Source: an uncultured delta proteobacterium
GTDB taxonomy: Bacteria > Desulfobacterota > Binatia > Binatales > Binataceae
Direction: 5' to 3'
NCBI GenBank assembly: GCA_963842085.1
Contig: CAWJET010000001.1
Span: forward strand, 2,944,001-3,008,000
DNA: 64,000 bases
Positions within the stretch are counted from its first letter, which is position 1; every line of letters begins with the position of its first letter. Below are positions 5,325 to 57,542 of the stretch, one piece after another. The notes beneath the pieces are model-generated. The model did not search any database. It was not told where the DNA came from and saw nothing but the letters and a program-made list of their open reading frames with translations. Both the position numbers and the translations under genes were made by a program.

Positions 5325-6377
5325 ATGGATGACGGTGCGTTCGCAACCTGGGCGGCGGAGGCGCTCGCGCGGCGATGGCCGCGCGCGCGCGTCGACAACA
5401 TCGCCGCTCTCCGCGGCGACCTCTCGACTCGGCGTTTCTGGCGCGTCGCTATCGCGCCGCATGGCGAACGCACCGCGCCGTCCTCTGCCATCCTCGTCGA
5501 TCTCGGCCCCGACGACCTGCCCCGCTACGTCCGCGCACTGAACTTTCTCCCGGCGCCTGTCACCGAGCCGCCGTGGATCAATGTGCATCGGTTTCTCGAG
5601 TCGATCGGCACTCCCGTTCCTGCGCTCTATGACGCCGACCCCGCGCGGCGCGCGATGCTGGTGGAAGACGTCGGCCAACTCTCGCTGCTCGACGCTGTCC
5701 GCCGTCCTGGCGCCGACGCCGCCGATCTGTTCCGGCTGGCCGCCACCGAACTGCTTCGCCTTCATGTCGACGGCACCGCTCGAATCGATCATCGATGCAT
5801 CGCGCGGCAGATTGCGTACACCGGCCGGCTGTTCGAATGGGAGCTCAAGGAGTTCGTGGAAGTCGGTCTTTCCGCCGTCGCACCAGGCGCCGACTTTTCT
5901 CCGATCGCGCCCGAGCTCGCGATGCTGGCCGCGCGACTCGATCGGTTCCCACGCGTGTTCTCGCATCGCGACTACCATCGCGAAAACCTGTTCATCCAGA
6001 ACGGCCGGCGCATTCGCATCATAGACTTCCAGGACGCCCTGATGGCGCCCGCGGCGCAGGACCTCGCCGTGCTCCTGACCACGCGCGACACGGGCGAGAT
6101 GATCTCGCCCGCCATCGAGCGCCGTATCCTCGACTTCTACTGCGCCGGCCTCGCGCGGCGCGGCGCGCCCGTGCTCGACGCCGCCGAATTCATGTCAAGC
6201 TATCGCCTGTGCGTTCTGCAACACGCGCTCAAAATGATCGGGCGCTTCGAAATGTTCGAGCGGAGCGGCAAGACCGGGTACCGTCCCTACATTCCGCACG
6301 TGCTCGCACAGGCGCGCCGGATGCTCGCCGAAATGCGCCCCGACTTTCCCAAACTGTGCTCTGCGCTGACGCCATGA
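5325..6377 (+). CDS. amgK: Anomeric MurNAc/GlcNAc kinase (APH/choline kinase family)
   Basis: LRGDLSTRRFWR, HRDYHRENL, IIDFQDAL; directly upstream of a murU-like nucleotidyltransferase. Confidence 0.75.
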   Translation: MDDGAFATWAAEALARRWPRARVDNIAALRGDLSTRRFWRVAIAPHGERTAPSSAILVDLGPDDLPRYVRALNFLPAPVTEPPWINVHRFLESIGTPVPALYDADPARRAMLVEDVGQLSLLDAVRRPGADAADLFRLAATELLRLHVDGTARIDHRCIARQIAYTGRLFEWELKEFVEVGLSAVAPGADFSPIAPELAMLAARLDRFPRVFSHRDYHRENLFIQNGRRIRIIDFQDALMAPAAQDLAVLLTTRDTGEMISPAIERRILDFYCAGLARRGAPVLDAAEFMSSYRLCVLQHALKMIGRFEMFERSGKTGYRPYIPHVLAQARRMLAEMRPDFPKLCSALTP

Positions 6378-8823: not shown

Positions 8824-9009
8824 GATGGTCCTCTACCTGTCCGTGACCGCCCTCTTCGACGAACGTTATCCTGAGCGCATCGCAGGCTCAGAACAAACCC
8901 GATTGTTCCGTGCACCAACAACAAATGGGAAGAGGTCAGGTCTGCCCGGCGTCCACCTCGCCGCCGACGCTTGCACGCCGTCGTCCTCTCTGAACATTCT
9001 CGATCCTCG

Positions 9010-9930
9010 ATGGCCAGGCAAATCGGTCCCGTCAAAGCCCGCATCGAATACACGGGCATAACCGCTGTGACCGCGGCGTTGCGCGCGATGCCATTGGAAC
9101 GTGCGGTGCGTGCGGGCGCGCGGCTGGGAGGATGGGCGATGAATTTCGATCGTCCCAACCGGCCGATCGCGCTCAAGAACCTCGAAATCGCTTTTCCCGA
9201 GATGACCCCCGCGGCCCGCCTCAGCATTCTGCGCAAGATGTATCGCAGTTGGGGCCGCGTGCTGGCCGAATGGACCCACGTGCCCGAGCTCAGCCGCGCC
9301 AATGTCGAGCGGGTCGCCACCTACGAGGGCAAGGAAAATTGGGACGAGGCGGAGCGCCGCTCCAACGGCCGCGGCATATTGGTGCTGACCGCACACTTCG
9401 GAAACTTCGAGCTCCTGCCGATTGCCCACTCCATCTACGGCTACCGCCTCGCCATCGTGCATCGCGCGCTGCGCAATCCACTCGTCGACGCCGCGATCTG
9501 CGCCGAGCGCGTCCGCTACGGCAACCGCATCATCGAGCGCAAGGCCGGCGGGCGCGAGATCATGCGGATGCTGCGGCAGAACTGGATGATCGCGGTGGCG
9601 CTCGATCTCGACGTGCGCAAGGGCGTGTTCGTCGATTTCTTCGGGATGCCCGCCTCGACCAGCGACGGCGTTGCGCGGCTGTCGATCGCCACCGGTGCGC
9701 CGGTGATGCCGGCGTTCATGGTGCGCCAAGGCGACACGATTCATCACAAGATAACGATTCTGCCCGCCTTCTACCCCGAGAAGACCCGCAACCGCGAGGC
9801 CGCCGTGCGCGAGTACACGCAGCTCTACTCCAACACGATCGAGCAAATGATCCGCGAGCATCCCGATCACTGGAACTGGATCCACCGCCGCTGGAAAACC
9901 CGCCCCTCCGGCGAAGCCCGCTTTTACTAG
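9010..9930 (+). CDS. lpxL: Lipid A lauroyl/late acyltransferase (LpxL/HtrB family)
   Basis: LTAHFGNFE, VFVDFFG, HPDHWNWIHRRWK. Confidence 0.85.
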   Translation: MARQIGPVKARIEYTGITAVTAALRAMPLERAVRAGARLGGWAMNFDRPNRPIALKNLEIAFPEMTPAARLSILRKMYRSWGRVLAEWTHVPELSRANVERVATYEGKENWDEAERRSNGRGILVLTAHFGNFELLPIAHSIYGYRLAIVHRALRNPLVDAAICAERVRYGNRIIERKAGGREIMRMLRQNWMIAVALDLDVRKGVFVDFFGMPASTSDGVARLSIATGAPVMPAFMVRQGDTIHHKITILPAFYPEKTRNREAAVREYTQLYSNTIEQMIREHPDHWNWIHRRWKTRPSGEARFY

Positions 9931-10553
9931 ATCGTCGTACCGGGAGAACTCGTCAGTAAGGCGTGGCGCAGCAACCGGCGGACGTAGGCACGCATGTCTT
10001 TGCGATTCTTGTGACCCGGACGAATCAGCAGGTGATACATGATCGCGCCTCCGAGCATGTCCTGCAAAATTTCCGGATCGGCTGCTTGGGCCACCAGGCC
10101 TCGCGCGCGCGCTCGATCGATAGTCTTGGCGACGAGCCTGCGCCGCGGGAGCAAATAGGTGTTCCAATAAACCAACATCAGCTTCGGAGAATCCGGTAAC
10201 GAGCCGACCAGTTTTGCGACCGTCCTCAGATAGCCCCGCCTGGTAACCGTCTCGGAAAGCGCGTTGGTCAGTTCGTCCGCCATTCGCTTCGGCGAAACGC
10301 GGGCCGCCGTCAAGGTTCGCTCGGGCGCTTTCCTGGACATGTCCATCGCGTGGGCGAGCAGATCTTCCCGCGACGACCATCGACGGTAGATGGTGGTGCG
10401 CGCGACGCCGGCGCGTCGGGCAATCTGCTCGAAGCTCGCACCCTCGAGGCCGTGCTCGACAAAGAGTTCGAGCGCCGCGCGAAGCACTGCTGCATCGGCG
10501 GCCGGATCGCGCGGCCGCCCACGGCCGGCCTTCGCATGAGGTTTCGCGGTCAT
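9927..10553 (-). CDS. TetR/AcrR family transcriptional regulator
   Basis: GRGRPRDP...IARRAGVARTTIYRRW helix-turn-helix. Confidence 0.9.
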   Translation of the reverse strand: MTAKPHAKAGRGRPRDPAADAAVLRAALELFVEHGLEGASFEQIARRAGVARTTIYRRWSSREDLLAHAMDMSRKAPERTLTAARVSPKRMADELTNALSETVTRRGYLRTVAKLVGSLPDSPKLMLVYWNTYLLPRRRLVAKTIDRARARGLVAQAADPEILQDMLGGAIMYHLLIRPGHKNRKDMRAYVRRLLRHALLTSSPGTTI

Positions 10554-10558
10554 ATCGC

Positions 10559-11395
10559 TCAGGCGTTGATCCGGAGCTTGCGAAACATCCTCATCCGGCG
10601 AAGGCTGATCCAATAGATCAGGCCTGGGAGCGCGCGATTAATTCGCCAGATCCATCGAACTGCCGCAGGAAAGACGATCAGAGCCTGGTTGCGGGACACG
10701 CCGCGCAGGATTTCGCGCGCGGCAGCTTCGGCGCTTATCTGGCGGATTGGAAAATGAGAACGCCGGCTTACCCGGACCACCTCATCGTGCGGCATATTCA
10801 TTACGACCATGTTCTCATAGACGCTCGTCTTCATGTCACCCGGACAAACCGCGCTCACCTTCACGCCCAGGTCAGCTCCTTCAAATCGCAGCGAGAGCGA
10901 GAGCCCGATAATCCCGTGCTTGCAGGTGCAATAGGATGCATTGCCGGGCTGCGGAGTCAGGCCGCTGGCGGAGGAAACGTTGACGATGTGCCCGTGTCCC
11001 TGTTTGACCATCACCCGATACGCGTCGATCGTCCCGTAGATGACGCCGTGCAGGTTCACCGCGAGCACGCGGTCCCACTGTTCGATCGAGACGTCGCGCG
11101 CGTCGCCGCCGATAAAGATCGCCGCGTTGTTGAAGATGTAATCGAGGTGTCCGAACTCGGAGACCGTGGTTTCAATCAGGCGCGCAACGTCCTCCTGCTT
11201 CGAAACGTCAACCGTTACCGCGCGAGCGCGTCCGCCGCCCTGCGCAATGCGGGACGTCACCTGTCCGGCGGCGTTACCGTCGATATCGGCGACCACGACG
11301 ACGGCTCCTCGGCGCGCCAGCTCCTGGCACAGGGCCTGTCCCAGGCCCATGCCGCCACCCGTGACGATCGCGACTTTGTTCTCAAACTGTTCCAT
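10559..11395 (-). CDS. SDR family oxidoreductase
   Basis: VTGGGMGLG, NNAA, YCTCK catalytic YxxxK. Confidence 0.9.
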   Translation of the reverse strand: MEQFENKVAIVTGGGMGLGQALCQELARRGAVVVVADIDGNAAGQVTSRIAQGGGRARAVTVDVSKQEDVARLIETTVSEFGHLDYIFNNAAIFIGGDARDVSIEQWDRVLAVNLHGVIYGTIDAYRVMVKQGHGHIVNVSSASGLTPQPGNASYCTCKHGIIGLSLSLRFEGADLGVKVSAVCPGDMKTSVYENMVVMNMPHDEVVRVSRRSHFPIRQISAEAAAREILRGVSRNQALIVFPAAVRWIWRINRALPGLIYWISLRRMRMFRKLRINA

Positions 11396-11400
11396 CCTGT

Positions 11401-11433
11401 AAATACGATACAGACCTGTATCGTATTTGTCCA
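11401..11433 (-). promoter_or_regulatory. sigma70-like promoter with an overlapping 13-bp inverted-repeat operator (probable TetR site)
   Basis: AAATACGATACAG-ac-CTGTATCGTATTT (11401-11428). On the minus strand: TGGACA-N17-TATCGT, 9 nt before the SDR ATG. Confidence 0.75.
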
Positions 11434-11477
11434 GCTTCGTGCATATATCCGGCTCGAGTCAACCGCGCCCGGGCAGC

Positions 11478-12767
11478 TCAGTTCATCTGCAGATGACTTG
11501 CTAGTTCGGTGACGCGAGCCGGATCGATTATGACTATTGCGGCGGCGCCGACGGCGAACATGATCGCGAACCCAGCCATCAGGCGCAGGTAGAAGGCCGG
11601 CTGATGGCTGGTCTCGGCCACAGCCGACTTGAAGATCGCGTTCACTCCGGCCGCCAGCGTCAGCCCGATTACCGCGTCGCGCGCCGCGCTGGTGCCGGCT
11701 TGCACGAAACCAGACAGTGTCAGCGAGATCGCATCGACGTCCACCAGCCCGCTGATCGCCGACACCACCATCTGGCCGCTGTATCCCGCGTAAGCCTTGG
11801 CGACGCGGGTAACCAGCAGCACCACGGTGAAGACCACGCCGAACTCGAGTGCGGGGCGGATCGAGAACGGGTTGCGGAAGGTGGTATCTGGCACTTGGTG
11901 GCCTTTTTTCGCAGCCGCCGGCGCGAGCACCACGGCCGCGGCGAACCCCGCGATCATCATCGCGGCGAACGCGGGGCTGGCCGCGAGCGCGAGCGTCGGG
12001 CTCACCAGGACGACCAGCAGCAGCATCCGCGGGAACAGTATCGCATTGGCGATTATCGAGTAGCGGGCCGCCGAGACTGCGGACTCCGGCGCGTCGGCAA
12101 CTGCCCGCGAGATCCCGGTGGTATAGGCAGTAGTCGAGGCGATCGCGCCGACGATCGCGGTGAGCAATGCGCCGCGCTGCTCGCCGGTAAACTTGGTCAG
12201 GAAGTAGCCTAGATACGAGACTCCGGATACGAGGATTACGAACAGCCAGATCCTGCGGGGCTCGAAAAATCCAAATGGTCCGTAACGGCCGCTTGGCAGC
12301 AGCGGGTAGATGATGAAGATCAGGGCGAGAAAACTCAGCGTGTCGATGTATTCGCGATCGGAGATCGCGTCGCGCACAAAATGACGGAGCTGGTCGCGCT
12401 CGGCCAGGATCGCGGCAAGCACGATCCCCAGCCCGGCGCCGAACTGACGATCCGCGGTCAGGCAGAGACCGGCCAGCACGAAGGTCGCCAGCGCTGCCAG
12501 CTCGGTGGTGATTCCGTTGCGCTCCGGATGCTGCGCGCGCATCACGAGCACCGCGCCGATGGTGCCGGCGAACAAGGCGATGGTGATCGCCGCGCTGCCG
12601 GAGTGTCCCGCGACCGCGCCGAGCAGCGCGATTATCAGGAAATCGCGCATCCCGGGGCGCGGCGTGCCGTGCAGGACGGGTTCCCGGGTGCGGCCGACGA
12701 GGAATCCGATCGTCAGCGCGAGCAGGAATCCCACGGCGGGTGAGTTGGGGCCGGTCAGCTCGGACAT
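11478..12767 (-). CDS. MgtC/SapB-family, DUF4010-domain membrane protein
   Basis: PGMRDF, GITTELA, LIFIIYPLLP, SGVSYLGY, ISGLVDVDAI. Confidence 0.8.
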   Translation of the reverse strand: MSELTGPNSPAVGFLLALTIGFLVGRTREPVLHGTPRPGMRDFLIIALLGAVAGHSGSAAITIALFAGTIGAVLVMRAQHPERNGITTELAALATFVLAGLCLTADRQFGAGLGIVLAAILAERDQLRHFVRDAISDREYIDTLSFLALIFIIYPLLPSGRYGPFGFFEPRRIWLFVILVSGVSYLGYFLTKFTGEQRGALLTAIVGAIASTTAYTTGISRAVADAPESAVSAARYSIIANAILFPRMLLLVVLVSPTLALAASPAFAAMMIAGFAAAVVLAPAAAKKGHQVPDTTFRNPFSIRPALEFGVVFTVVLLVTRVAKAYAGYSGQMVVSAISGLVDVDAISLTLSGFVQAGTSAARDAVIGLTLAAGVNAIFKSAVAETSHQPAFYLRLMAGFAIMFAVGAAAIVIIDPARVTELASHLQMN

Positions 12768-24976: not shown

Positions 24977-26152
24977 TTACTTGGTCTCGCGCATTGCGCG
25001 CACCAGAATCGCCGCGAGCTCCGGGCGCGTGAATTCCGGCGGCGGCGCTTCCCCCGCGCGCAGCATCTCGCGGACTTTCGTGCCCGACAGTATCAAACGG
25101 TCCGCGTCGGTATGCGGGCAGGTCTTGAACGACGCCATCGCGTTGCATCGCTTGCAGTAAAAGGTGTTCTCGAACATCAGCGGCGTGATCCCGAGTTCCG
25201 CCGGCGCGAAGCGCTCGAAGATCTTCTGCGCGTCGTAGCTGCCGTAGTAACTGCCGACGCCGGCGTGGTCGCGCCCCACGATGAAATGCGTGCAGCCGTA
25301 GTTGCGCCGCGCGATGGCGTGCAGGATCGCCTCGCGCGGGCCGCCGTAGCGCATGTGCGCCGGGAACACGCCGATCATCGCGCGATTCTTCGGGTAGTAC
25401 AGGTCGAGCAGCACCTTGTAGGTCTCCATCCTGACCGCGGCGGGCACGTCGTCGCCCTTGGTCTCGCCGACCAGCGGATGGATCATCAGGCCGTCGCAGA
25501 TTTCCAGCGCCGCTTTCTGGATATACTCGTGCGCGCGATGGGTCGGGTTGCGGGTCTGGAAGGCGACGATCTTCTTCCAGCCACGCTCGCGGAACGCCGC
25601 GCGCGTCTGCCGCGGCTCGCGCGGAAATTCCAGGAACGTGCGCCCCGGTATCTCCTCGACCAGCGTGACCTTGCCCGCAATGCAGTACGGCGGCATCGAG
25701 GTGACGTTCTTCGCCCCCGGATGCGCATCCTCGGCAGTGCCGAACACGTTTTGCGCTTCTAGTTTGCGATCGACTTTGTAAATTTCCGCGAGCTTGAGAA
25801 TCGCCAGCCGCTTGCCGTCTTCGGTCGCCAGCGCGATCTCATTGCCCGTCTTCAGAGACTTCGCTGTCGCCTCATCGACGCCCAGCGTGATTGGAATCGA
25901 CCACGGTGCTCCCGACGCAAGGCGCATCTCGTCGCGCGAGCGTGTGTAATCGGCCTCGCCCATGAAGCCCGTCAGCGGCGAGAACGCGCCCGTCGCGAGC
26001 ATCTCGAGGTCGGCCAGGTCGCGCGCGTTGAGCGTGACGCTCGCGAGCTTCGCGGCATGCGCCGCCAGCGCAGCGCGCTCGGAGGCCGGCGCTTTCAGAT
26101 CGACCAGCTCGCCGCCGCCGTGCGCCCCGATTGCGTCGTCGCGCACGCTCAT
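24977..26152 (-). CDS. sat: Sulfate adenylyltransferase
   Basis: [41 protein letters not shown]. Confidence 0.95.
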
Positions 26153-26691
26153 CGCCGTCCTCCCCGGTTGATGTAGCTCAGCTCCTCGAGCCGCCCGATC
26201 AACTTGCCCAGGCTCTGGTCGACGGTTTCCACGCTGCTGTCGACGACCAGCTCGGGCTTCAGCGGCTCTTCGTACGGGTCCGACACGCCGGTGAAAGATT
26301 TGATCTCGCCGGCCAGCGCCTTCTTGTAGAGCCCCTTGACGTCGCGCTCGACGAGCTTGTCGATCGTGCAGCGCACGTACACTTCGAAGAAGCGGTCGTG
26401 CTTGCGGCGCACCTCGTCGCGAATCTCCCGGTAGGGCGAAATCGCCGCCGAAATCGCGATCACGCCGTTGCGCGACAGCAGATGGCACACGTAGCCGATC
26501 CGCCGGATGTTAATGTCGCGATCCTCCTTGGAAAAGCCGAGTCCCTTGGAAAGATTGGTGCGGACTTCGTCGCCGTCGAGGATTTCGACGCGATGCGCCC
26601 GACTGCGCAGTTCTTCGGCCGCCAGATTCGCAAGCGTGGATTTCCCCGCCCCGGACAGTCCCGTAAACCACAAGGTAAAGCCTTGATCCAT
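26149..26691 (-). CDS. cysC: Adenylyl-sulfate kinase
   Basis: [30 protein letters not shown]. Confidence 0.95.
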
Positions 26692-26710
26692 CGGCAAAAA
26701 CTGATGCTCC

Positions 26711-26758
26711 TCAATAATAGATTACTTACTGAACTCTTCAAGTTACTTAATATTATTG
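26711..26758 (-). promoter_or_regulatory. AT-rich promoter/operator region of cysC-sat
   Basis: Minus strand TTGAAG-N16-TATTAT; CAATAATA...TATTATTG inverted repeat; TAAGTAA direct repeats 21 bp apart; GAGGAG RBS. Confidence 0.5.
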
Positions 26759-26800
26759 GAGGAAACAAGGCTGCAACAAAGGACCCCTTCGCGAATTCTA

Positions 26801-26881
26801 AACCGGAACCGGCTTCGCTGGCCCGAAGCTGTCCGAGATCCTTGCGCTGCGCTCGCGATGCTCGCAGCGTTCAGGATGACA
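26801..26881 (-). repeat. Family A element (reverse orientation); supplies the HAD gene stop codon
   Basis: rc: TGTCATCCTGAACGCTGCGAGCATCGCGAGCGCAGCGCAAGGATCTCGGACAGCTTCGGGCCAGCGAAGCCGGTTCCGGTT. Confidence 0.85.
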
Positions 26882-27560
26882 AGCCAGCGGGCAGGTTCAG
26901 TTGAATCGCAAGCGCGGCCGGTGAGCCGAAGATTTCGGCGGCGCCCGCCGCCAACAGTCGATCCCGCGCGCTATCGGTAGGCGCGATTCCGTAAAACCTC
27001 ACGCCGCAACTTTGCGCGGCGCGAAGGTCGGCTTCGCTGTCGCCGACGAATGCGGCCTCCGATCGATCGATGGAAAATACTTCGAGCGCGCGAATCAGCA
27101 TGTCGGGCGCCGGCTTGAGTCCGAGCAGTGTGTCGCGCCCGACGATGGCATCGACGCATGGGTGCCCATTTCTGTCGAACCAGCGCGCGACCGTTCTCGA
27201 GGAGTTGGACGTCACGATCGCGACTGCGGCGCCGCTTTGTTTCAATGCCGCCAGTGTTTCGACTGCTCCTTCGAGCGGCTGTGCGCGATCGACTCCCGCA
27301 AGCTCGATCTTCTCGATTATCTCAGAAGCATGCCGCAGTCGTTCGATGACCTCAGCTCCGTTGGCTTGTGCGAGCATGAGGGTGCGGTAGGCATCGTAGA
27401 GCGGGAGGTTGCCGCGCGGGATTCGCGCGAACAGTTCGTCGGGCGCGCCGATCGAGCGCAGGTAGGGCTCGAGGATGAGCCGGCCGCCCGCCCAATCGAC
27501 CTCGGGCTCGAGCCGCGCGATCGTGTTGTCGAAGTCGAACATCCAGAGCTTGTACATCAC
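26871..27560 (-). CDS. HAD-superfamily hydrolase (subfamily IA)
   Basis: FDFDNT, VTSN, KPAP, VGDSEAD. Confidence 0.88.
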   Translation of the reverse strand: MMYKLWMFDFDNTIARLEPEVDWAGGRLILEPYLRSIGAPDELFARIPRGNLPLYDAYRTLMLAQANGAEVIERLRHASEIIEKIELAGVDRAQPLEGAVETLAALKQSGAAVAIVTSNSSRTVARWFDRNGHPCVDAIVGRDTLLGLKPAPDMLIRALEVFSIDRSEAAFVGDSEADLRAAQSCGVRFYGIAPTDSARDRLLAAGAAEIFGSPAALAIQLNLPAGLSS

Positions 27561-28159
27561 GGATCGACGCGAACCCTGGTCTCATAGCCGTCGAACTCGA
27601 TTGTCGCGCGCGACGGATTTTCCGCGTATCCGGCGAGCAGCTTGAATGCTTCCGCCGTCGCGAGCATCGCGATAAAATCCGCGGCCTCCGAACGCGTGCC
27701 GACCGATGCAGGCATCGACGCGTCGACGGTTCGCCCGCCCTGGGTTCGGGGGATGACGATAATTTTTCCCGGCGCGTCGAGACGCGCGATCACCAATGCT
27801 GGCACATCTCGATTGTTCGCGATCTCATGTGCAACCTTCCGAGCCGAATCACTTCCGACAATCACGAATGCCAAATTAATGCGTCCTCGTGGTTCATTCG
27901 CGACGGTGACGGATACGTCGGCATTCAGTGCGCGCGCTTGTGCGATCTTCTCGGCGAATCCGGCTTCGTTGCCGGCTACTCGAACGCCTATCGCTCCAAC
28001 TCCCGCACCGACCAGGTACGCGAGCGGCGCTTCGATATCGCGCGCGTCTCCCGCCAGCAGCATCCGTGCGGCGAGCAAGCGTTCCTGGCCGCGGCCGCCG
28101 ACGCGCGGCACGATGATTTGCCGGCTGTAGCGATCGATTTGCGCGTCAGTCAGGGTCAT
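27557..28159 (-). CDS. Catalytically dead ThiF/MoeB-like (E1-like) protein
   Basis: Keeps RYSRQII..VGGRGQERL, LVGAGVG, ALNADVSV and the AEAFKLLAG dimer helix; lacks GxGxxG and SNLxRQ; contains no Cys. Confidence 0.75.
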   Translation of the reverse strand: MTLTDAQIDRYSRQIIVPRVGGRGQERLLAARMLLAGDARDIEAPLAYLVGAGVGAIGVRVAGNEAGFAEKIAQARALNADVSVTVANEPRGRINLAFVIVGSDSARKVAHEIANNRDVPALVIARLDAPGKIIVIPRTQGGRTVDASMPASVGTRSEAADFIAMLATAEAFKLLAGYAENPSRATIEFDGYETRVRVDP

Positions 28160-28174
28160 CGCACACGCGCACGG

Positions 28175-28420
28175 TCACTCGATCACGTTCTTTTCGATTG
28201 GCTCGACGGTGACTCCGGTGCTGCGCAACCAGGTCAGCGCGCGTTCGATCTGATCCGAGCTGCCTTCGAATTCGACGGCGACGAGTCCCATCTCCTCGGA
28301 CACGCTCGCGCCCCGAATATTGAAAACGAGGTCGAACTTCTTCACCAGCTGGTAAAGGATCGGCTCCTTGATCAGCGTGCGCGGATAGCTCAGGTAGTAG
28401 CGTTCGTGGATACGTTCCAT
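28175..28420 (-). CDS. Standalone NIL-domain protein
   Basis: KEPILYQLVKKFDLVFNIRGASV..GLVAVEFEG..ALTWLRSTGVTVEPI. Confidence 0.8.
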   Translation of the reverse strand: MERIHERYYLSYPRTLIKEPILYQLVKKFDLVFNIRGASVSEEMGLVAVEFEGSSDQIERALTWLRSTGVTVEPIEKNVIE

Positions 28421-28427
28421 TTGCGGG

Positions 28428-29501
28428 TTACTTCTTCTTCCACTTGGCGATGACTTGTTGCAGGCGCTCGCGACGCCATTCCTGCCATCCGATCCACAAA
28501 TTCGTCGACAGATATTTGTCGCCGAAGTCGGCGAACACGGTGACTATCGTGCCTTCGCGAATTGAGCGCGCGACCCTGAGCGCTGCGATCATCGCGGCCC
28601 CCGACGATTGGCCGACCAGGATGCCTTCGGTCTGCCCGAGCGCGTACACCATCTCGTACGCTTCTTCGGTGCCGACCGGGATTTTGTCGTCGAGCTGTTT
28701 TTCGTGATAGATGCCGGGTACGATCGAGCTCGCCATGTGCTTGAGGCCCTCGAGCCCGTGCATCGCGTCGTCCGGCTCGACCGCAATCACTTTGAGCGCG
28801 CGGTTCTTCGCTTTGAGAAACCTGCCCGTGCCCATCACCGTGCCGCCGGTGCCGATCGCCGCAACGAAATGGGTCACCTGGCCGCGCGTCTGGCGCCAGA
28901 TTTCCGGGCCGGTGGTCTCGAAATGCGCAATCGAGTTGGCCTCGTTGTTGTACTGGTCGGGCTTGAAGTAGCGCCCGGGGTTGTCCTCGATAAGGCGGCG
29001 GCACATGACGATCGCGCCGTCGGAACCTTCCATCGGATCCGAGAAATGAATTTTTGCGCCGTAAGCCTCGACGATTTTCTTGCGCTCGCGGCTCACGTTC
29101 GACGGCATCACCAGCTCGACCGGGTAGCCGAGCGTCGCACCAAGCATCGCCAGCGCGATTCCGGTGTTGCCCGAGGTCGAATCCAGGATCACCTTGCCTG
29201 GTTTCAGCTTGCCTTCGTTGATTCCCACCTCGAGCATTTTCTTCGCCGGCCGATCCTTGACCGAGCCGCCGGGGTTGAAGCCCTCGAGCTTGGCGAAAAT
29301 CCGCACGCCCGCGGGGATCAACCCCGCCGTCAGCCGGGTGATCTCCAGCAGCGGAGTATTGCCGACGAGATCGAGCACGCTGTTCGCGCGCCCAACCGGG
29401 ACGATCTCGCGGAGCGGCGCGACACGGCTGCCCGCGCTGTCGCGAGCGCCGGCGTCAGCGTCCGCCGGCAATCGCGGGAACGATTGAGATGTCGTCGCCA
29501 T
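28428..29501 (-). CDS. cysM: PLP-dependent cysteine synthase (CysM-like); start uncertain
   Basis: GNTPL, KLEGFNPGGSVKDR, STSGNTG, IGTGGT, GQSSGA, DFGDKYLS. Confidence 0.85.
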   Translation of the reverse strand: MATTSQSFPRLPADADAGARDSAGSRVAPLREIVPVGRANSVLDLVGNTPLLEITRLTAGLIPAGVRIFAKLEGFNPGGSVKDRPAKKMLEVGINEGKLKPGKVILDSTSGNTGIALAMLGATLGYPVELVMPSNVSRERKKIVEAYGAKIHFSDPMEGSDGAIVMCRRLIEDNPGRYFKPDQYNNEANSIAHFETTGPEIWRQTRGQVTHFVAAIGTGGTVMGTGRFLKAKNRALKVIAVEPDDAMHGLEGLKHMASSIVPGIYHEKQLDDKIPVGTEEAYEMVYALGQTEGILVGQSSGAAMIAALRVARSIREGTIVTVFADFGDKYLSTNLWIGWQEWRRERLQQVIAKWKKK

Positions 29502-29733
29502 CCTTTACCTTGGAATTGATCGCATCGAGGAAGCGGACGTCGTCGCCGTTGAGATAAATGTTGACGAAGCGGCGGATGTCGCCTTTTTCATCGAGCAGCC
29601 GCTCGCGTATTCCCGGATGGCGCCGATCGAGGTCTTCGATCACCGCCTTGATCGAAGCGCCGTCGGCCGGAACTTCGTCGACACCCGCGGTGAACCTTCG
29701 AAGTGGAGTTGGAACTCTGACGCGTACTGCCAT
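29455..29733 (-). CDS. MoaD/ThiS/CysO-family ubiquitin-like sulfur carrier with a C-terminal GG-R extension
   Basis: VPTPLRRFT..RRFVNIYLNGDDVRF..ISIVPAIAGGR*. Confidence 0.9.
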   Translation of the reverse strand: MAVRVRVPTPLRRFTAGVDEVPADGASIKAVIEDLDRRHPGIRERLLDEKGDIRRFVNIYLNGDDVRFLDAINSKVKDGDDISIVPAIAGGR

Positions 29734-29803
29734 GATTGGGGACTTGCCTCCTGATTGAATTGCTACACTTATGCCCGCCGCATAGTCCAAACAAGCGCCG
29801 CCG

Positions 29804-31072
29804 TTACGCCGCGCTGTCTGCGGTGCGTTTCCCATTGGTGAGCCGGTCGAACAACGCGTCGAAATCCTTCAGCCGCGCGTCGATGATCGACGGCTGCTCG
29901 ATCGCGTTGGCAACCGCCTCGAGCGTCTTGTAGCCGTTGCCGGTTATCGACACGACCACGGTTTCGTCGGCCTTGATGCGTCCCTGTTTGACCAGCTTGA
30001 GCGTGACCGCGAGCGTGGTGCCGCCGGCGGGCTCGGCGAAAATTCCCTCGGTGCGCGCGAGCAACTTGATCGCGTCGATGATCTCCGGGTCGGTGGCGAC
30101 GTCGCCCCATCCGCCGGAATCGCGCACCGCCTTGAGCACATAGAAGCCGTCGGCCGGATTTCCGATCGCGATCGATTTCGCGATCGTGTCGGGCTTCACC
30201 GGCGTTATCAGGTCAGTGCCCTTGTGCAGCGCGTGGATAACCGGCGCGGAGCCGGCCGCCTGCGCGGAATGAATCTTGAACTCGCCGCTCTTGATTAGCC
30301 CGACCTCCTTCAGCTCCTTAAATGCCTTCGCGACTTTCGGCAGAATCGTCCCGCCCGCGGTTGGCACCACGATATGGTCCGGCAGCCGCCAGCCGAGCTG
30401 CTCGGCGACTTCGAAGCCGAAAGTCTTTGCACCCTCGGTGTAGAACGGACGCAGGTTGATATTGACGAAGGCCCACCCGTACTTGTCCGCGATCTCGCTG
30501 CACAGCCGGTTGACGTCGTCGTAGTTGCCCCGAATCGTGATCACGCGCGCGCCGTAAATCGTCGAGCCGACGATTTTTCCCGACTCCACGCCTTCGGGCA
30601 TGAAGATGTAGCATTGCAGTCCCGCGCGCGCCGCGTGCGCCGCCACCGCCGTCGCCAGGTTGCCGGTCGACGCGCAGGATACGGTGGTGAAGCCGAACTC
30701 GCGCGCCTTGGTGATTGCCACCGACACGACGCGGTCCTTGTACGACAGGGTCGGATGGTTGACGGTGTCGTCCTTGACGTAGAGATGCTCGAGCCCGAGA
30801 TCCGCGCCCAGCCGCTTGCAATGCAGCAGTGGGGTGAAGCCGGAGTTGGGGCCGACGACCTCGTTCTCGTTGAAATCGACCGGCAGCAATTCGCGATAGC
30901 GCCACAGATTGTGCGGACGTCTCTCGATTATCGAGCGCGAGAGCGCCGCGCGAATCCGCGCGTAGTCGTAGGTGACCTCGAGCGGACCGAAGCACGTCTC
31001 GCAGACGTGGAGCGGGCTTATCGGATACTCCTGGCCGCATTCGCGACACTTCAAATTGGTGATGTAGCTCAT
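29804..31072 (-). CDS. Threonine-synthase-like PLP enzyme (possibly O-phosphohomoserine sulfhydrylase)
   Basis: N-terminal CRECG..CETCFG zinc knuckle; HPTLSYKDR, ASTGNL, EGAKT, EGIFAEPAGG, TGNGYK. Confidence 0.85.
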   Translation of the reverse strand: MSYITNLKCRECGQEYPISPLHVCETCFGPLEVTYDYARIRAALSRSIIERRPHNLWRYRELLPVDFNENEVVGPNSGFTPLLHCKRLGADLGLEHLYVKDDTVNHPTLSYKDRVVSVAITKAREFGFTTVSCASTGNLATAVAAHAARAGLQCYIFMPEGVESGKIVGSTIYGARVITIRGNYDDVNRLCSEIADKYGWAFVNINLRPFYTEGAKTFGFEVAEQLGWRLPDHIVVPTAGGTILPKVAKAFKELKEVGLIKSGEFKIHSAQAAGSAPVIHALHKGTDLITPVKPDTIAKSIAIGNPADGFYVLKAVRDSGGWGDVATDPEIIDAIKLLARTEGIFAEPAGGTTLAVTLKLVKQGRIKADETVVVSITGNGYKTLEAVANAIEQPSIIDARLKDFDALFDRLTNGKRTADSAA

Positions 31073-31089
31073 CGTTTCCTCGATTCCTG

Positions 31090-31797
31090 TTACTTGCCCG
31101 GCGCTTGCGCCTCGCGACGGTCGGGCTTCCACGCGCCGCAGCCGCATCCACGGCGCGGACTAACCGCCGCGATTCGCACCCGGGCCGGGCCGGACGCGTC
31201 GTACGTGAGAATTTTTCCTGAGAGCAACGGTGTTTGCGCGCGCATCGCGCGCATCGCCTCGGACGCCTGTATCTCGCCAATCGCGCCCGCGACCGGCCCG
31301 GCGATCCCAGCCTCGCGGCAACTCTGGATTTCGTCCTCATCGGGCGCCGTCTCGAACACGCAGCGGATACACGCCGTCTCGCCCGGGATCACCGTCATCG
31401 CCTGCCCGGTCATCCCGACCACGCCGCCATAAACGAAGGGCGTCCGCGCCGCGATACACGTGTCGTTGATCAAAAGTTTCGCGGCCGGACTGTCCGTCGC
31501 GTCGATAACAAAGTCGTGTGCGGCGACCAGACGCGCCGCGTTGGACGCGTCGAGCGCAACCGCATGCCGCTTGACGTTGAGGTCAGGAAACCGCTCGGCG
31601 AGCCATCGTGCGGCAGCGTCGACCTTGGGCGTGCCGATATCGACGGGACGATAAATCACCTGGCGCGCGAGATTAGACAGCTCGACCGGGTCCGGGTCGA
31701 CCAGTGTCATCCCCCGAGCACCGGCGCGCCCGAGCGCCCACGATGCGGGGACGCCAAGTCCTCCCAAGCCAACGATCAGTATTCGTTCCGTTGCCAC
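31090..31797 (-). CDS. ThiF/MoeB-family adenylyltransferase (E1-like) lacking the N-terminal arginine-finger helix
   Basis: GLGGLG, DPDPVELSNLARQ, DATD, CIRC, SCREAG; GTG start with GGGAGAGG RBS and an in-frame stop upstream. Confidence 0.88.
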   Translation of the reverse strand: MATERILIVGLGGLGVPASWALGRAGARGMTLVDPDPVELSNLARQVIYRPVDIGTPKVDAAARWLAERFPDLNVKRHAVALDASNAARLVAAHDFVIDATDSPAAKLLINDTCIAARTPFVYGGVVGMTGQAMTVIPGETACIRCVFETAPDEDEIQSCREAGIAGPVAGAIGEIQASEAMRAMRAQTPLLSGKILTYDASGPARVRIAAVSPRRGCGCGAWKPDRREAQAPGK

Positions 31798-31801
31798 GTC
31801 A

Positions 31802-31835
31802 GTCGCGCCTCTCCCGTCTTGTCGAGAGCCGCAAC
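31802..31835 (-). promoter_or_regulatory. SD-sequestering hairpin (candidate riboswitch expression platform)
   Basis: Minus strand GTTGCG-G-CTCTC..loop..GAGAG-G-CGCGAC pairs over the GGGAGAGG RBS. Confidence 0.5.
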
Positions 31836-31903
31836 GCCGTCAGTGCCTATGGGAAGCCGGTGAAAATCCTGCGATGGCGATAAGACGAGGGCTTAATACA
31901 CTC

Positions 31904-32022
31904 GCCTTATCTTCCAGGAGACTCTCGCGCGGAGAACCCCTGCAGGAGTTAGCACCAGCACCCATCACGGGCCGGTTGCTGCGGCATCAGCGGGCCAGTC
32001 CCTCCGCCGCTCTCGATAAGGC
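31904..32022 (-). ncRNA. SAM-I (S-box) riboswitch
   Basis: rc: GCCTTATCGAGAGCGGCGGAGGGACTGGCCCGCTGATGCCGCAGCAACC...GGTGCTAACTCCTGCAG...CTGGAAGATAAGGC; P1 CTTATC/GATAAG and all S-box cores present; lies upstream of sulfur amino-acid genes. Confidence 0.92.
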
Positions 32023-32073: not shown

Positions 32074-32233
32074 TCGACAAACCAATCGGTCAGCCGTATG
32101 CCGAATTCGTTTGCTACTTGGCGCGCATTTTGTCCATGTTCGCCCCAACCTTTTGGGGGCCCTTTTGCGGGGAATCAAATCTCGCAGAGCCGGTGCTGCG
32201 GATTTTGCGATAAAAGGGCAGAGGAGATCGACT

Positions 32234-33551
32234 ATGACCTCTCGATGGGCGGGGCTGGCCGTTTGCCTGCTAATCGCGATTGCAGGGTTCTCTCTCAGTA
32301 CTGGATGCGACCCGTGCTCCTCTTGTTCGACTACTCGCAAGAAACCCACTGCTTCACCTACGCCGGCGCCCAACGCATGCTTGCCGTCGAGTTCCTTGGC
32401 GATACTGGTCCAGGGGAAGAATGCAACTGCTTATCTTCCGCAGGGAAGCTGGGGCGGAGATGCGAACAGCGTTAACGTCGTACCGATTGAAACCAGCAGT
32501 GGCCTTGGTACGGGTGGTGCGCCGACTTTAATTGCGACGCCGAACACTCCAAACTCTTGCTCCTCCAACTCCAATACCGGCGAGACGGTATGCGTCGCCA
32601 ACAACACCGATGTTTACCTGATTAACGGCACGACGCTAACCAGCACGCTGACCAGCGGCGCGACCGCCGATCAGTTCTTTTCTGGCGGTAGCTGTATGAA
32701 CTGTGGCGTAGTGGTGGACTCAACGACCAACAAGGCATTGATCACGATTGGACTCGACAGCGGTGGTCCTGGTGGATACCAATTTCTCGATTTGGGCGGC
32801 TCGCCAACTTTTGAAACACCCATTCCCGCCGGAGTGGGGACTTCAGAAGACGTTTCGATCGACCCGGTCCGCCACCTGATATTGTCGCCAAACGAATCCT
32901 TTCGAAAACGAAGGTCAATCGGATTACCAGATCGTTAATATCAGCACCTCGACGCCGGCACTGTTCAACAACGACCTGTCGGACTTGGGGCCCCAGTCGT
33001 GGGACTCGGCAGGCGAAGACTGCACCACCGGCATCGCGCCGGCTACGGATGAGGGCACCGGAGATCTGTTCATCGCCGATCTGACCCAGGCGGTCTTTAC
33101 GCCGGGATCGCCCGCAGGCACGTGGACCGACGCCGCCAGCCAGCTTCAGAACTTCCCCGAGTTTGAAGGGCTCGCGGCCGGCACCTGTGGTATTGCCGTC
33201 GCACCGGGCACGCATCTTGGCATAGTGACGGGTGAGTTTGGCGGCGATCTCGAGGGCGTGATCGAGCTGCCGGCCACTTCGGGAAGCGGAACGCCCGCAG
33301 TCGTCGACTATGTGGCGTTTAACGTACCCAGTCCCCCGACCGAGGAAGGTTGGTCGCAGGGTTTCGATCCTCACACGGTAACGGCTTACGTCAGCCCTAA
33401 CAGCAAAAAGGCATACGCGGTGTTGGAGAACGGCGACTTCAGTTATGTGGCAATCGTCGACCTGCAGGGGATGCTGAGCGCGCCACGAACGGGAGCGCAC
33501 ACGGCGACCAACCCGCTACCGCCCGGCCTGGTGACATTCGTCGCGGAGTAG
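32234..33551 (+). pseudogene. Secreted Cys/Thr-rich probable lipoprotein, interrupted by one frameshift (possibly an assembly indel)
   Basis: GAGGAG RBS and lipobox-like STGC; removing one T at 32900-32902 joins ORFs 32111-32938 and 32985-33551 (..PNESFENEGQSDYQIVNIST..). Confidence 0.65.
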
Positions 33552-33554
33552 CGG

Positions 33555-34562
33555 CTAGCGGCTACTGATGAGCAGTTCCGCGATCTGAACGCCGTTTAGC
33601 GCCGCGCCCTTGCGCAACTGGTCGCCCACGACCCAGAAGTTCAGCGCGTTGGGGCGGCTCAGGTCCTCGCGGACTCGCCCGACGAAGCAATCGTCCTGTC
33701 CCTCGACGAGGATCGGCATCGGGTAGCGGTTTTGCGCGGGATCGTCGAACAGCCGAAGTCCCGGGAAGTGCGCGAACGCCTCGCGCGCGTCGGAGGCCGC
33801 AATCTTCGTCTCGGTCTCGGCGTTGACCGAAATCGAATGCGCGGTGAAGACCGGCACGCGCACCGTAGTCGGCGAAATCGGCAACTCGGGCTGGTCGAGG
33901 ATCTTGCGGATCTCGTTGACCAGCTTGATTTCCTCGTCGGTATATCCGCCCTCGACAAATTTGCCTGCGGGAATCAGGTTGAACGCAATCTGATGCGGGA
34001 AAAATTTCGGCTTGATTGACTCGCCCTTCGCCCACGCCATCGTCTGCTCGCGCAACTCCGCGATACCGTTGACGCCTGCGCCCGAGACCGCCTGGAAACT
34101 CGTCGCAACCACGCGTTTCAAACGGCCGAGGTCATGGATCGGCTTGAGCGGCATCACGGTGACGATCGTCGTGCAGTTCGGACACGCGACGATTCCCTTG
34201 TGATTGCGCGCCGCGGCGCCGTTGATCTCGGGCACCACCAGCGGCACGTTGGGGTCCATGCGGAACGCGCTCGACTTGTCGACGACGATCGCGCCCGCCT
34301 TGACTGCAATCGGTGCGAACTCGCGCGACTGCTCCGAGCCGGCCGAGAACAGCGCGATATCGATTCCCTTGAACGAGTTGGCGTCGAGCTTTTGCACCGT
34401 TATCGGCTCGCCGGCGAAGGTCACGGTCTTGCCCGCCGATCGCTCCGACGCATACGCGCGCAGCTCGCGCACCGGGAACATCCGCTGCTCGAGAATTTTC
34501 AGCGTGGTCTGGCCGACGGCCCCCGTCGCACCCACCACCGCAATTCTCTGTCCACTAGCCAT
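33555..34562 (-). CDS. asd: Aspartate-semialdehyde dehydrogenase
   Basis: VVGATGAVG, SSAFRM, PNCTT, QAVSGAG, DQLRKGAALN. Confidence 0.95.
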   Translation of the reverse strand: MASGQRIAVVGATGAVGQTTLKILEQRMFPVRELRAYASERSAGKTVTFAGEPITVQKLDANSFKGIDIALFSAGSEQSREFAPIAVKAGAIVVDKSSAFRMDPNVPLVVPEINGAAARNHKGIVACPNCTTIVTVMPLKPIHDLGRLKRVVATSFQAVSGAGVNGIAELREQTMAWAKGESIKPKFFPHQIAFNLIPAGKFVEGGYTDEEIKLVNEIRKILDQPELPISPTTVRVPVFTAHSISVNAETETKIAASDAREAFAHFPGLRLFDDPAQNRYPMPILVEGQDDCFVGRVREDLSRPNALNFWVVGDQLRKGAALNGVQIAELLISSR

Positions 34563-56216: not shown

Positions 56217-57452
56217 TTAGCGCGCGGACGCCGCCGCGCTCGTATGTGACGTTTGTTCTGCATGCGCAGTTCCGTTTGCAGCCGCACCCAGACCGCAGAA
56301 TGCTTCGTAATCTATGAGCGTGGTTTGGGTGGGATGCTCGCTGCAGACGGGGCACTTCGGATCTTTGCGGATCTTCAGAATTCGCACGTAGTCCTTGTCC
56401 GACAGCGTGTCGAAATAAACCATCTTGCCAATCAGAGGAGACCCCGCGCCAAGAATCAGCTTGATCGCCTCGAGCGCTTCGATCGATCCGATCAATCCCG
56501 GCAATGCGCCGAGCACACCGGCTTCCGCGCACGACGGCGCCATGTCCGGCGGCGCCGGCTCGGGATACAGGCATCGGTAGCACGGTCCGCCCTTGGCCGG
56601 GTAGAAAACCGTGGTGTTGCCTTCGAAGCGGAAAATCGCGCCGTCCACCAGCGGCTTCTTCGAGAACACGCACGCGTCATTGATCAGGTATCGAGTCGGG
56701 AAATTATCTCCGCAGTTCACGACGACGTCGTAGTCCTTGATGATGTCCATCGCGTTCTCGGACGTCAGTCGCACGTCGTGACGAATCACCTTTATGCCCG
56801 GATTCAGCGCGTTGATTGATTTCTGCGCCGACTCCGTCTTGGGCATCCCGACGCGCTCGGTCGTGTGGATGATCTGCCGCTGAAGATTCGACATGTCGAC
56901 CACGTCGAAATCCACCAGGCCGATCGTGCCGACTCCCGCCGCCGCGAGATACAGCGCCGACGGTGAGCCGAGCGCGCCGGTGCCGAGCAGCAGCACCTTG
57001 GCGTCGAGCAGTTTGGCCTGTCCCTTTTCGCCGACTTCGGGGATTACGAAATGTCGCGAATAGCGCGTCAGCTCCTCGGCCGTGAACGCGCGATCCGCCA
57101 CCCATGGCAGGCCGCGATCCTTCCACGCGTTGAAGCCGCCCATCAAGTTGTACACATTTTCGTAGCCGAGCTCGCGCAGTGTGCGCGCCGCCAGCAGCGA
57201 GCGCGTGCCCGACGCGCACTGCAGAATGACCGGCGTCTTGTGGTCGGGGACTTTCTCCTCGATTCTGAGTTCCAGGAATCCGCGCGGAATCGCGACCGCC
57301 TGCGGAATATGGCCCTGCCGCCATTCGTCGCTTTCGCGCACGTCAACCAGCACCGTGCCGGGCTTGTCGATCATCCGGCGCGCTTCGTCGATATCGACTT
57401 GCTTAATCGTCGAGCGCGCTTCGTCGAGAATATTCTTCGAGGTTTTCGCCAT
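56217..57452 (-). CDS. moeB: Rhodanese-ThiF fusion (MoeZ/MoeBR-type sulfur-carrier adenylyltransferase/sulfurtransferase)
   Basis: N-terminal rhodanese (DVRE, CASGTRS); RYSRH, GTGALG, SNLQRQ, CYRC, SCAEAG, CPVC. Confidence 0.9.
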   Translation of the reverse strand: MAKTSKNILDEARSTIKQVDIDEARRMIDKPGTVLVDVRESDEWRQGHIPQAVAIPRGFLELRIEEKVPDHKTPVILQCASGTRSLLAARTLRELGYENVYNLMGGFNAWKDRGLPWVADRAFTAEELTRYSRHFVIPEVGEKGQAKLLDAKVLLLGTGALGSPSALYLAAAGVGTIGLVDFDVVDMSNLQRQIIHTTERVGMPKTESAQKSINALNPGIKVIRHDVRLTSENAMDIIKDYDVVVNCGDNFPTRYLINDACVFSKKPLVDGAIFRFEGNTTVFYPAKGGPCYRCLYPEPAPPDMAPSCAEAGVLGALPGLIGSIEALEAIKLILGAGSPLIGKMVYFDTLSDKDYVRILKIRKDPKCPVCSEHPTQTTLIDYEAFCGLGAAANGTAHAEQTSHTSAAASAR

Positions 57453-57542
57453 AAATTTCCCCGTCCGATCCGTCGGCGGAGTCAGTTTCAATATACAACT
57501 ATAACCACGCGCGCGAGTCACGCCCGACGGCGCCGCGGTCGG

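Follow-up and report, generated by a model that had tools for sequence, protein, structure and literature searches.

We analyzed a 64-kb stretch of the genome of an uncultured soil bacterium of the Binatia type (contig CAWJET010000001.1, positions 2,944,001 to 3,008,000), hereafter called the window, in which an S-adenosylmethionine (SAM) riboswitch of the SAM-I class is followed on the minus strand by nine genes: ThiF, ThrC-like, carrier, CysM, NIL, ThiF', HAD, cysC and sat. Our subject is the pathway of sulfur amino acid synthesis through a protein thiocarboxylate that these genes may encode. The first-pass annotation had described a SAM-I riboswitch, a tightly packed gene series and cysC-sat, with asd 1.5 kb away. 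All of these elements are present, in that order and on the minus strand, and asd is confirmed at 34562..33555, on the same strand as the aptamer and 1,532 nucleotides (nt) upstream of it. The same arrangement is found in L001, one of the related loci that we coded L001 and so on. Named relatives belong to Candidatus Binataceae or Binatus. The annotation had also pointed to a MetM/MetO route in Streptomyces, and such a route exists: the available text of GapMind 2026 (PMC13759103) lists a thiocarboxylate pathway of Streptomyces albulus that leads from O-phosphohomoserine to homocysteine and employs the carrier MetO, the maturation hydrolase Mec, the ligase MoeZ and the enzyme MetM. The same text describes MetM as often misannotated as threonine synthase and, according to the accessible part of PMC12172450, a SAM riboswitch lies upstream of S. 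albulus metM. The features of the window locus are the following:

31904..32022 (-), SAM-I riboswitch aptamer (RF00162, full model)
31798..31903 (-), expression platform and leader with a Shine-Dalgarno-like run, GGGAGAGG
31090..31797 (-), ThiF-type E1 adenylyltransferase, N-terminally short, 235 amino acids, candidate catalytic subunit (PF00899, E 2.4e-62, profile positions 21-236)
29804..31072 (-), MetM-type ThrC homologue with an N-terminal four-Cys zinc ribbon, candidate carrier-thiocarboxylate-dependent homocysteine synthase (PALP, E 7.3e-73)
29455..29733 (-), CysO/MetO-type sulfur carrier of the MoaD/ThiS fold, 92 amino acids, ending in AGG-R (PF02597 ThiS, E 4.3e-15)
28428..29501 (-), CysM-type cysteine synthase (TIGR01138, 366.5 bits, under the cut-off of 394.2)
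28175..28420 (-), stand-alone NIL-domain protein, 81 amino acids (PF09383, E 2.3e-15)
27557..28159 (-), ThiF', degenerate E1 paralogue, 200 amino acids, candidate non-catalytic subunit (residues 11-59 match ThiF with 20.6 bits, under the cut-off of 28.1)
26871..27560 (-), HAD-IA phosphatase-like protein (HAD_2, E 1e-22; only generic HAD-IA models above cut-offs)
26149..26697 (-), cysC, adenylyl-sulfate kinase (PF01583, E 7.7e-60; NF002059, 266 bits, cut-off 244)
24977..26155 (-), sat, sulfate adenylyltransferase (PF01747 and PUA_2; NF003166, 539.1 bits, cut-off 387)
33555..34562 (-), asd, aspartate-semialdehyde dehydrogenase, outside the riboswitch unit (NF011456, 446.8 bits, cut-off 223)

The aptamer is complete, covering model positions 1-108 of 108, and its 89.8 bits (E 4.6e-20) exceed the gathering score of 44.4; it is the sole Rfam match in the window. 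The 3' strand of its P1 helix is able to pair with a downstream segment in an alternative helix, and the stability of the fold is close to that of shuffled sequences (z -1.42). No intrinsic terminator was predicted in the stretch that leads from the aptamer to the start codon. The scan for promoters and terminators did no better than on shuffled sequences (2 found versus 1.7 expected, and 9 versus 8.8). The genes are closely spaced, with gaps of 17 nt between ThiF and the ThrC-like gene, 70 nt between the latter and the carrier gene, 7 nt between CysM and NIL, 15 nt between NIL and ThiF', and 173 nt between HAD and cysC. The remaining neighbors overlap: carrier and CysM by 47 nt, ThiF' and HAD by 4 nt, and cysC and sat by 7 nt. 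Since the gene 3' of sat is convergent, the unit ends at sat.

Relatives of the ThrC-like enzyme

A profile made of the window ThrC-like protein and 15 representatives was scanned against one genome per species. We retained the best 80 of at least 600 matches, which share 55-87% identity and come from 15 named phyla, and searched the open reading frames (ORFs) of these 80 loci with the window proteins. A carrier gene lies in the cluster on the same strand in 70 of the 80 loci (separate or fused to NIL in 69, fused to ThiF in L039), and in 63 loci it lies no more than 700 nt downstream of the MetM-like gene. ThiF-type genes occur in 19 clusters and CysK/M-type genes in 15. Just upstream and on the same strand, 24 loci carry a SAM-I element (E 1.9e-21 to 4.8e-13), as scored by nhmmer profiles seeded from the window aptamer and not by Rfam. 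These profiles found no SAM-I in the 31 cyanobacterial or the 9 Nitrospirota loci, and Rfam, run on ten loci without an nhmmer match, returned two transfer RNAs only and no SAM riboswitch of any class. The recurrence of the same neighbors around ThrC-like relatives in many phyla argues that the gene grouping did not arise by chance.

A counterpart to the Streptomyces arrangement was found in the actinomycete Nonomuraea gerenzanensis, in an 11.85-Mb record filed as a plasmid, where a SAM-I riboswitch, a MetM-like gene (51.5% identity to that of the window) and a carrier gene follow each other in the layout reported for Streptomyces metM-metO. A phylogeny of the ThrC-like protein, as proposed in the first-pass annotation, groups it with this gene: in a tree of 126 rows (quick IQ-TREE, LG+G4), the window protein, all 80 loci and the Nonomuraea gene form one clade with a support of 98-99 in the Shimodaira-Hasegawa-like approximate likelihood ratio test (SH-aLRT). 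Some of these loci hold a second, short ThrC; five such copies fall outside the clade as an outgroup (support 100), and a sixth is a long-branch fragment. The best solved relatives of the ThrC-like protein are short threonine synthases that align from residue 52-57 onward, and none of the solved relatives is named MetM. The segment ahead of this alignment includes a four-Cys ribbon (residues 9-27) that is absent from the short canonical ThrCs; in a 16-row alignment of the clade, C9, C24 and C27 are invariant and C12 is nearly so. The carrier might dock at this ribbon.

Two loci from Nitrospirota and Thermodesulfovibrionia, L017 (175-5723) and L024 (10001-15384), hold in one row a MetM-like gene, a carrier, NIL, a canonical thrC (TIGR00260, 320 and 328 bits), a proposed homoserine kinase of the apgM family (TIGR02535, 560 and 567 bits, cut-off 446) and an aspartokinase. 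This row indicates that the two types of ThrC coexist and are not redundant, and it ties the clade to the supply of O-phosphohomoserine. In these loci the homocysteine and threonine branches from O-phosphohomoserine thus seem to stand within one operon. The window itself holds no second thrC, metA/X, metB/Y/Z or cysE within its 64 kb. Overall, a MetM-type function of the ThrC-like protein is well supported by the comparison of loci, and what gene databases call a threonine synthase is here probably a homocysteine synthase.

ThiF and ThiF' as complementary halves

The operon ThiF has no rhodanese domain, and its N-terminal arginine-finger helix is missing: the alignment starts at residue 32 for MoeB and at residue 29 for ThiF. 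An in-frame TGA at 31842, 14 codons upstream of the start, leaves no room for this helix. ThiF' begins with precisely the missing segment, including its RYSRQ run, and is without the glycine-rich loop, the DxDxV..SNLxRQ block and any of the zinc cysteines. The complementarity is perfect in the best 120 cluster representatives of each family for the helix: the motif RYxR[QH] is found in 0 of 120 ThiF and in all 120 ThiF' proteins. The opposite distribution holds for SNLxRQ (119 of 120 ThiF, 0 of 120 ThiF') and for at least two Cys pairs (120 of 120 and 0 of 120, respectively). The 120 ThiF' representatives share 66-81% identity with the window copy, and an alignment of 38 rows (A5) shows 43 invariant ThiF' residues, 14 of which lie at positions 7-27, around the RYSRQ helix.

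Three runs of structure prediction on the ThiF-ThiF' complex all scored 0.92, and none of 3 controls rose above 0.00. As a rough guide only, since custom alignments were used here, 116 of 157 solved complexes and 2 of 215 mismatched pairs attain this mark. The runs agreed in at least 94% of the contacts, with a predicted local distance difference test (pLDDT) score of the partner of at least 86, and the predicted interface brings ThiF' residues 6, 9-14, 16-18 and 20 against ThiF residues 17-24 and 40-52, at the adenosine triphosphate (ATP) site. The model thus supports, without proving, binding of ThiF to ThiF'. The fold of the modeled ThiF' matches chains of ThiF, MoeB, Uba4 and APPBP1. The arrangement has a precedent in the accessible text of PMC13139853, where ThiF Arg11 and MoeB Arg14 reach the ATP site of the neighboring subunit and the yeast Tcd1-Tcd2 heterodimer works on the same arginine-finger principle. 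From motifs and model together, ThiF and ThiF' probably form a heterodimeric E1 encoded by two genes. A title- and abstract-level literature search found no description of a bacterial two-gene sulfur-carrier E1. In six Nitrospirota loci, the positions of ThiF and ThiF' around MetM-carrier-NIL are both taken by full-length ThiF paralogues, and these pairs plausibly represent an earlier stage.

Several observations weigh against such a heterodimer. The arginine finger is catalytically non-essential in MoeB and ThiF and is absent from E. coli TcdA, as far as the available text of PMC13139853 goes. In the 21-kb Binatia locus L001, a short ThiF is present, and ThiF' is absent from the 9 kb upstream and the 8 kb downstream of it. 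The score of the complex may only mirror its likeness to the solved MoeB and ThiF homodimers, and in the monomer model ThiF' reaches a pLDDT of 64.9, with its N-terminal helix below 50. ThiF' could therefore be no E1 subunit but a duplicate undergoing decay, or a protein that scaffolds or regulates some other partner, next to a short ThiF that acts as a homodimer without an arginine finger. We regard this explanation as doubtful, although it accounts for L001. A decaying gene is hard to reconcile with the maintenance of ThiF' in 120 representatives with 43 invariant residues, the RYSRQ run among them. Loss of the helix in one protein is matched by its retention in the other, ThiF' is translationally coupled within the operon, and the paired Nitrospirota genes occupy the same positions.

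Two further loci of the window deserve mention. At 56217-59325 (-), an intact rhodanese-MoeB gene (57521..56217; PRK08762, 549 bits, cut-off 449) lies next to an AhpC-type peroxiredoxin and thiC; its product keeps the N-terminal helix, with RYSRH, and appears to be a general carrier-activating enzyme apart from the ThiF pair of the operon. Between asd and the riboswitch, at 32111-33551 (+), there is a divergent, conserved hypothetical gene without Pfam family. The window copy is split between two frames, 32111-32938 and 32985-33551, and corresponds to one 439-residue ORF in L001 (7459-8778, minus strand); either a frameshift or a sequencing error accounts for the split.

The carrier, CysM and NIL

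The best solved relatives of the window carrier are of the CysO type (4n6e_B, 85.4 bits; 3dwg_C, a chain of the 3dwg complex from Mycobacterium tuberculosis, 78.4 bits). Nonomuraea has two carriers that are 54% identical to each other: one follows the MetM-like gene, and the other stands between JAB and CysM, in an order that resembles mec-cysO-cysM of mycobacteria. The window carrier is almost equally distant from both (50.5% identity to the CysO-like and 49.5% to the MetO-like protein). The Binatia have one carrier gene, which lies between the MetM-like gene and CysM. Among 69 carrier C-termini examined, 45 end at the Gly-Gly pair, 15 have 1-6 extra residues, 7 run into a NIL domain, 1 is cut by the contig end and 1 belongs to an ORF whose end is not resolvable. 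JAB genes were found in 13 of the 80 loci.

Some related clusters contain additional sulfur genes (L010 8458-8712; L032 1778-3020 and 5663-6924; L025 4651-4974; L022 14384-15580). The TusA, DsrE-like, small sulfite reductase and cysteine desulfurase proteins of these clusters could each donate sulfur to the adenylated carrier, and none of the four is encoded in the window operon. In L039, from a metagenome-assembled genome of the Actinomycetota, a full ThiF bears the carrier as an N-terminal fusion (8834-9952), and a ThiS-like stretch precedes a CysK-type enzyme (11235-12302), with 3'-phosphoadenosine 5'-phosphosulfate reductase, TauE and JAB genes in the same row.

The start of CysM overlaps the carrier gene by 47 nt in the window and likewise in L001. 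In a tree of 21 rows, the window CysM is one of the 9 members of a clade (SH-aLRT 93), every one of which is located in a carrier cluster. JAB peptidases were found in 5 of the 6 clade members that were searched or annotated, including L067; the window, L001 and L002 had no match. The other side of the tree holds E. coli CysM, the CysM of the Nonomuraea mec-cysO-cysM row and the CysK group. In this small tree, the window CysM is thus not placed with the actinobacterial mec-cysO-cysM type. What points to carrier dependence of CysM is its context and not orthology to the characterized enzyme, and from the single carrier gene that lies between the two pyridoxal 5'-phosphate (PLP) enzymes we infer that one carrier may serve both. 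One member of the CysM clade is found on a mobilizable plasmid, pACIB of Aliarcobacter cibarius (L083, NZ_CP043858.1 56700-69587), and shares 50.3% identity with the window CysM. An M67 peptidase gene adjoins it, and a MoaD/ThiS gene lies some 2 kb further along. The cluster, which IS110 and IS5 elements interrupt, also includes a 'threonine synthase', a ThiF and transporter genes for cysteine and sulfate.

The same data may be read in another way, in which the carrier serves MetM only and CysM is a co-regulated, ordinary O-acetylserine sulfhydrylase that could use sulfide or thiosulfate, like E. coli CysM, with no O-phosphoserine route. The window CysM is equally near to the CysM proteins of E. 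coli and Salmonella (231-239 bits) and to the O-phosphoserine sulfhydrylase of M. tuberculosis (212 bits), it falls outside the clade of the Nonomuraea mec-cysO-cysM enzyme, and the Nitrospirota clusters hold an enzyme of the CysK type (TIGR01139, 460 bits). We nevertheless consider an ordinary sulfhydrylase unlikely, in view of the overlapping genes, of a clade confined to carrier clusters and frequently accompanied by JAB peptidases, and of the contrast between Nonomuraea, with one carrier beside each enzyme, and the Binatia, with a single carrier between both.

The NIL domain is known from MetN. It accompanies the carrier in 28 of the 80 loci (28 of the 49 outside cyanobacteria), as a separate gene after the carrier in 21 and as a fusion in 7. 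In the fusions, the Gly-Gly pair is followed within a single ORF by a linker of 5-25 residues and then by NIL:

L009, 11275-11790, carrier-NIL fusion
L010, 8709-9239, carrier-NIL fusion
L011, 11288-11803, carrier-NIL fusion
L025, 3326-3853, carrier-NIL fusion
L032, 3020-3535, carrier-NIL fusion
L052, 6334-6903, carrier-NIL fusion
L040, 3041-3472, carrier-NIL fusion (cut by the contig end)

A JAB protease gene is present in the cluster of all 6 complete fusion loci and of L039 with its carrier-ThiF fusion. Its presence in the fusion loci fits a release of the Gly-Gly end by cleavage. We conclude that NIL is a conserved partner of the carrier, likeliest a regulator that binds methionine or homocysteine, or an adaptor of the carrier. 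No paper linking NIL with the MetM/MetO route was found in a title- and abstract-level search, which did not reach the primary paper (Hasebe et al. 2024).

The HAD gene is carried by no related locus. A role as ThrH-like phosphoserine:homoserine phosphotransferase was considered for its product and rejected, as the protein is of the HAD-IA type and not of the SerB/ThrH type. An ORF of the APH family at 5325..6377 was likewise discarded as a type II homoserine kinase, its best matches being AmgK-type kinases, far below cut-off.

A proposed thiocarboxylate route and its known counterparts

We interpret 32022..24977 (-) as one SAM-repressed transcription unit for the synthesis of sulfur amino acids via a protein thiocarboxylate, a reading to which we assign a probability of about 0.72 on the evidence of sequence comparison. 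The pathway would lead to homocysteine, probably also to cysteine, and be joined to sulfate activation; the unit is a richer variant of two published routes. Its chemical steps are all inferred from homology and context. Sat and CysC would activate sulfate, with the reductive steps to sulfide encoded elsewhere. A protease from outside the window would remove the terminal Arg of the carrier, and the ThiF-type E1 would then adenylate the Gly-Gly end and give rise to the carrier thiocarboxylate (carrier-COSH). In this E1, ThiF would bring the ATP site, the zinc-binding cysteines and the active-site loop, and ThiF', devoid of an ATP site, the arginine-finger helix and the dimer interface. The MetM-type enzyme would convert O-phosphohomoserine to a PLP-bound intermediate of the vinylglycine type, which would take up the thiocarboxylate sulfur and, after an acyl shift and hydrolysis, yield homocysteine. 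CysM would carry out the analogous reaction on an activated serine to yield cysteine, most simply with the same carrier. At high SAM the riboswitch would turn the whole unit off. We propose more tentatively, at somewhat less than even odds, that Binatia use a two-gene heterodimeric E1, made of the helix-less catalytic ThiF and the pseudo-enzyme ThiF', and that NIL is a general third component of carrier-dependent homocysteine synthesis.

A number of observations count against the unit as a whole. The gap ahead of cysC is a possible site of a separate promoter. The window contains no JAMM/Mec/JAB protease, as judged from the lack of a Pfam JAB match and from a tblastn search with 5 JAB proteins (best E 0.44); given a carrier that ends in GG-R, its terminal Arg would have to be trimmed by a protease encoded elsewhere. 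Seven of the 8 Acidobacteriota loci (L012, L015, L016, L026, L033, L049 and L066) have a MetM-like gene and no carrier within reach, which suggests that some enzymes of the clade may draw on free sulfide or on a carrier encoded at a distance. SAM-I is found upstream in six of these seven and in the carrier-bearing L008. In L066, a sulfite reductase gene lies just upstream of the MetM-like gene. The window protein was placed in the MetM clade through the Nonomuraea gene with the metM layout, not through S. albulus MetM itself, and activity measurements within the clade are limited to Streptomyces. The ThrC of Microcystis that stands beside a metO-like gene is 51.6% identical to MetM and, in the accessible part of PMC12172450, shows threonine synthase and deaminase activity in vitro and did not raise methionine, so that behavior in vitro can be mixed.

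Finally, the ThrC-like protein exceeds both thrC models (NF006050, 327.5 bits, cut-off 303; TIGR00260, 288.8 bits, cut-off 167.1). The first-pass annotation had held that a 'thrC' label would be wrong. Its clade, the carrier in 70 and SAM-I in 24 of 80 loci and the separate thrC of L017 and L024 speak for that claim at the level of sequence, and the model scores speak against it. Since the MetM-clade genes of L023 and L036 also exceed TIGR00260, the thrC models cannot separate MetM from ThrC. That the protein is a real threonine synthase or a bifunctional threonine synthase/deaminase, with the ThiF and carrier genes serving cysteine or another thio-cofactor, would agree with these scores, with the name threonine synthase that sources give to its relatives and with the Microcystis data, but is very improbable next to the riboswitch, the adjacent carriers, the canonical thrC in the same row, the distance from the short ThrCs and the documented misannotation of MetM.

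If the thiocarboxylate reading is correct, its consequences extend beyond this locus. The ThrC-like clade is widespread, with at least 600 matches of which the best 80 span 15 named phyla, and it passes a thrC equivalog model. Genomes that use it therefore seem to lack homocysteine synthesis and to have two threonine synthases, and auxotrophy predictions for uncultured groups such as Binatia are distorted. The window combines sulfate activation, an E1, one carrier and two PLP enzymes in one riboswitch unit, and is thus a convenient system in which to test carrier sharing. What is new here are the complementary ThiF and ThiF' halves of the E1 feature set and the association of NIL with the carrier, fusions included. 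A ThiF/ThiF' heterodimer, if true, would be a simple bacterial model of how an asymmetric E1 arises from a symmetric one, an independent parallel to APPBP1-UBA3 and SAE1-SAE2 with the Nitrospirota pairs as the intermediate stage. NIL would likewise be linked to two otherwise unrelated homocysteine routes, and the carrier-NIL fusions offer a direct entry to its role, which has been obscure since the work on DUF39.

Among known systems, HcyS/HcyF/HcyD of Wolinella is a protein-thiocarboxylate route to methionine. The window unit resembles it in a carrier with an extra C-terminal residue, in a ThiF-type activator and in the link to sulfate assimilation, and differs in its acceptor enzyme, which is ThrC-like in the window and an O-acetylhomoserine sulfhydrylase of the MetY type in Wolinella. 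A Pfam scan of the window ORFs found no PLP protein of the Cys/Met-metabolism family. With mec-cysO-cysM of M. tuberculosis the unit shares a CysM-type PLP enzyme directly beside a CysO-type carrier. Unlike there, the window CysM belongs to another clade, no JAMM gene is adjacent, and the carrier is shared by position with a MetM-type enzyme.

The likeness to MetM/MetO of S. albulus, as the available texts of PMC13759103 and PMC12172450 describe it, lies in a ThrC-homologous enzyme by a MoaD/ThiS-type carrier behind a SAM riboswitch, in the need to trim residues past the carrier Gly-Gly and in the label of threonine synthase given to the enzyme. In contrast to S. albulus, the window unit adds a rhodanese-less E1 (ThiF and ThiF'), CysM, NIL, HAD, cysC and sat, and ThiF stands between the riboswitch and the MetM-like gene. 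MoeZ and Mec are separate genes in S. albulus; the window is without Mec, and its host is a member of the Binatia and not an actinomycete.

The proposed E1 is comparable to APPBP1-UBA3, SAE1-SAE2 and Tcd1-Tcd2, in which, following the accessible text of PMC13139853, one ThiF-fold subunit is catalytic and the inactive one completes the ATP site with an arginine finger. It differs from them in being bacterial, in consisting of two small genes (235 and 200 residues), in serving, as we propose, sulfur-carrier thiocarboxylation and in having no E2 transfer domain. Because the catalytic subunit of the window lacks the whole helix, the division of labor would be sharper than in the eukaryotic heterodimers. 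As for NIL, a NIL-ferredoxin protein takes part in the DUF39 homocysteine route of methanogens and Desulfovibrio, where the role of NIL is given as unknown in the available text of PMC5764234. Both cases tie a NIL-domain protein to homocysteine synthesis. A scan of 70 ORFs of the window found no DUF39/COG2122 protein, and no Fer4 domain is present in the 81-residue NIL protein. Unlike in the DUF39 route, NIL of the window thus stands without ferredoxin, and it accompanies a ubiquitin-like carrier, to which it is sometimes fused.

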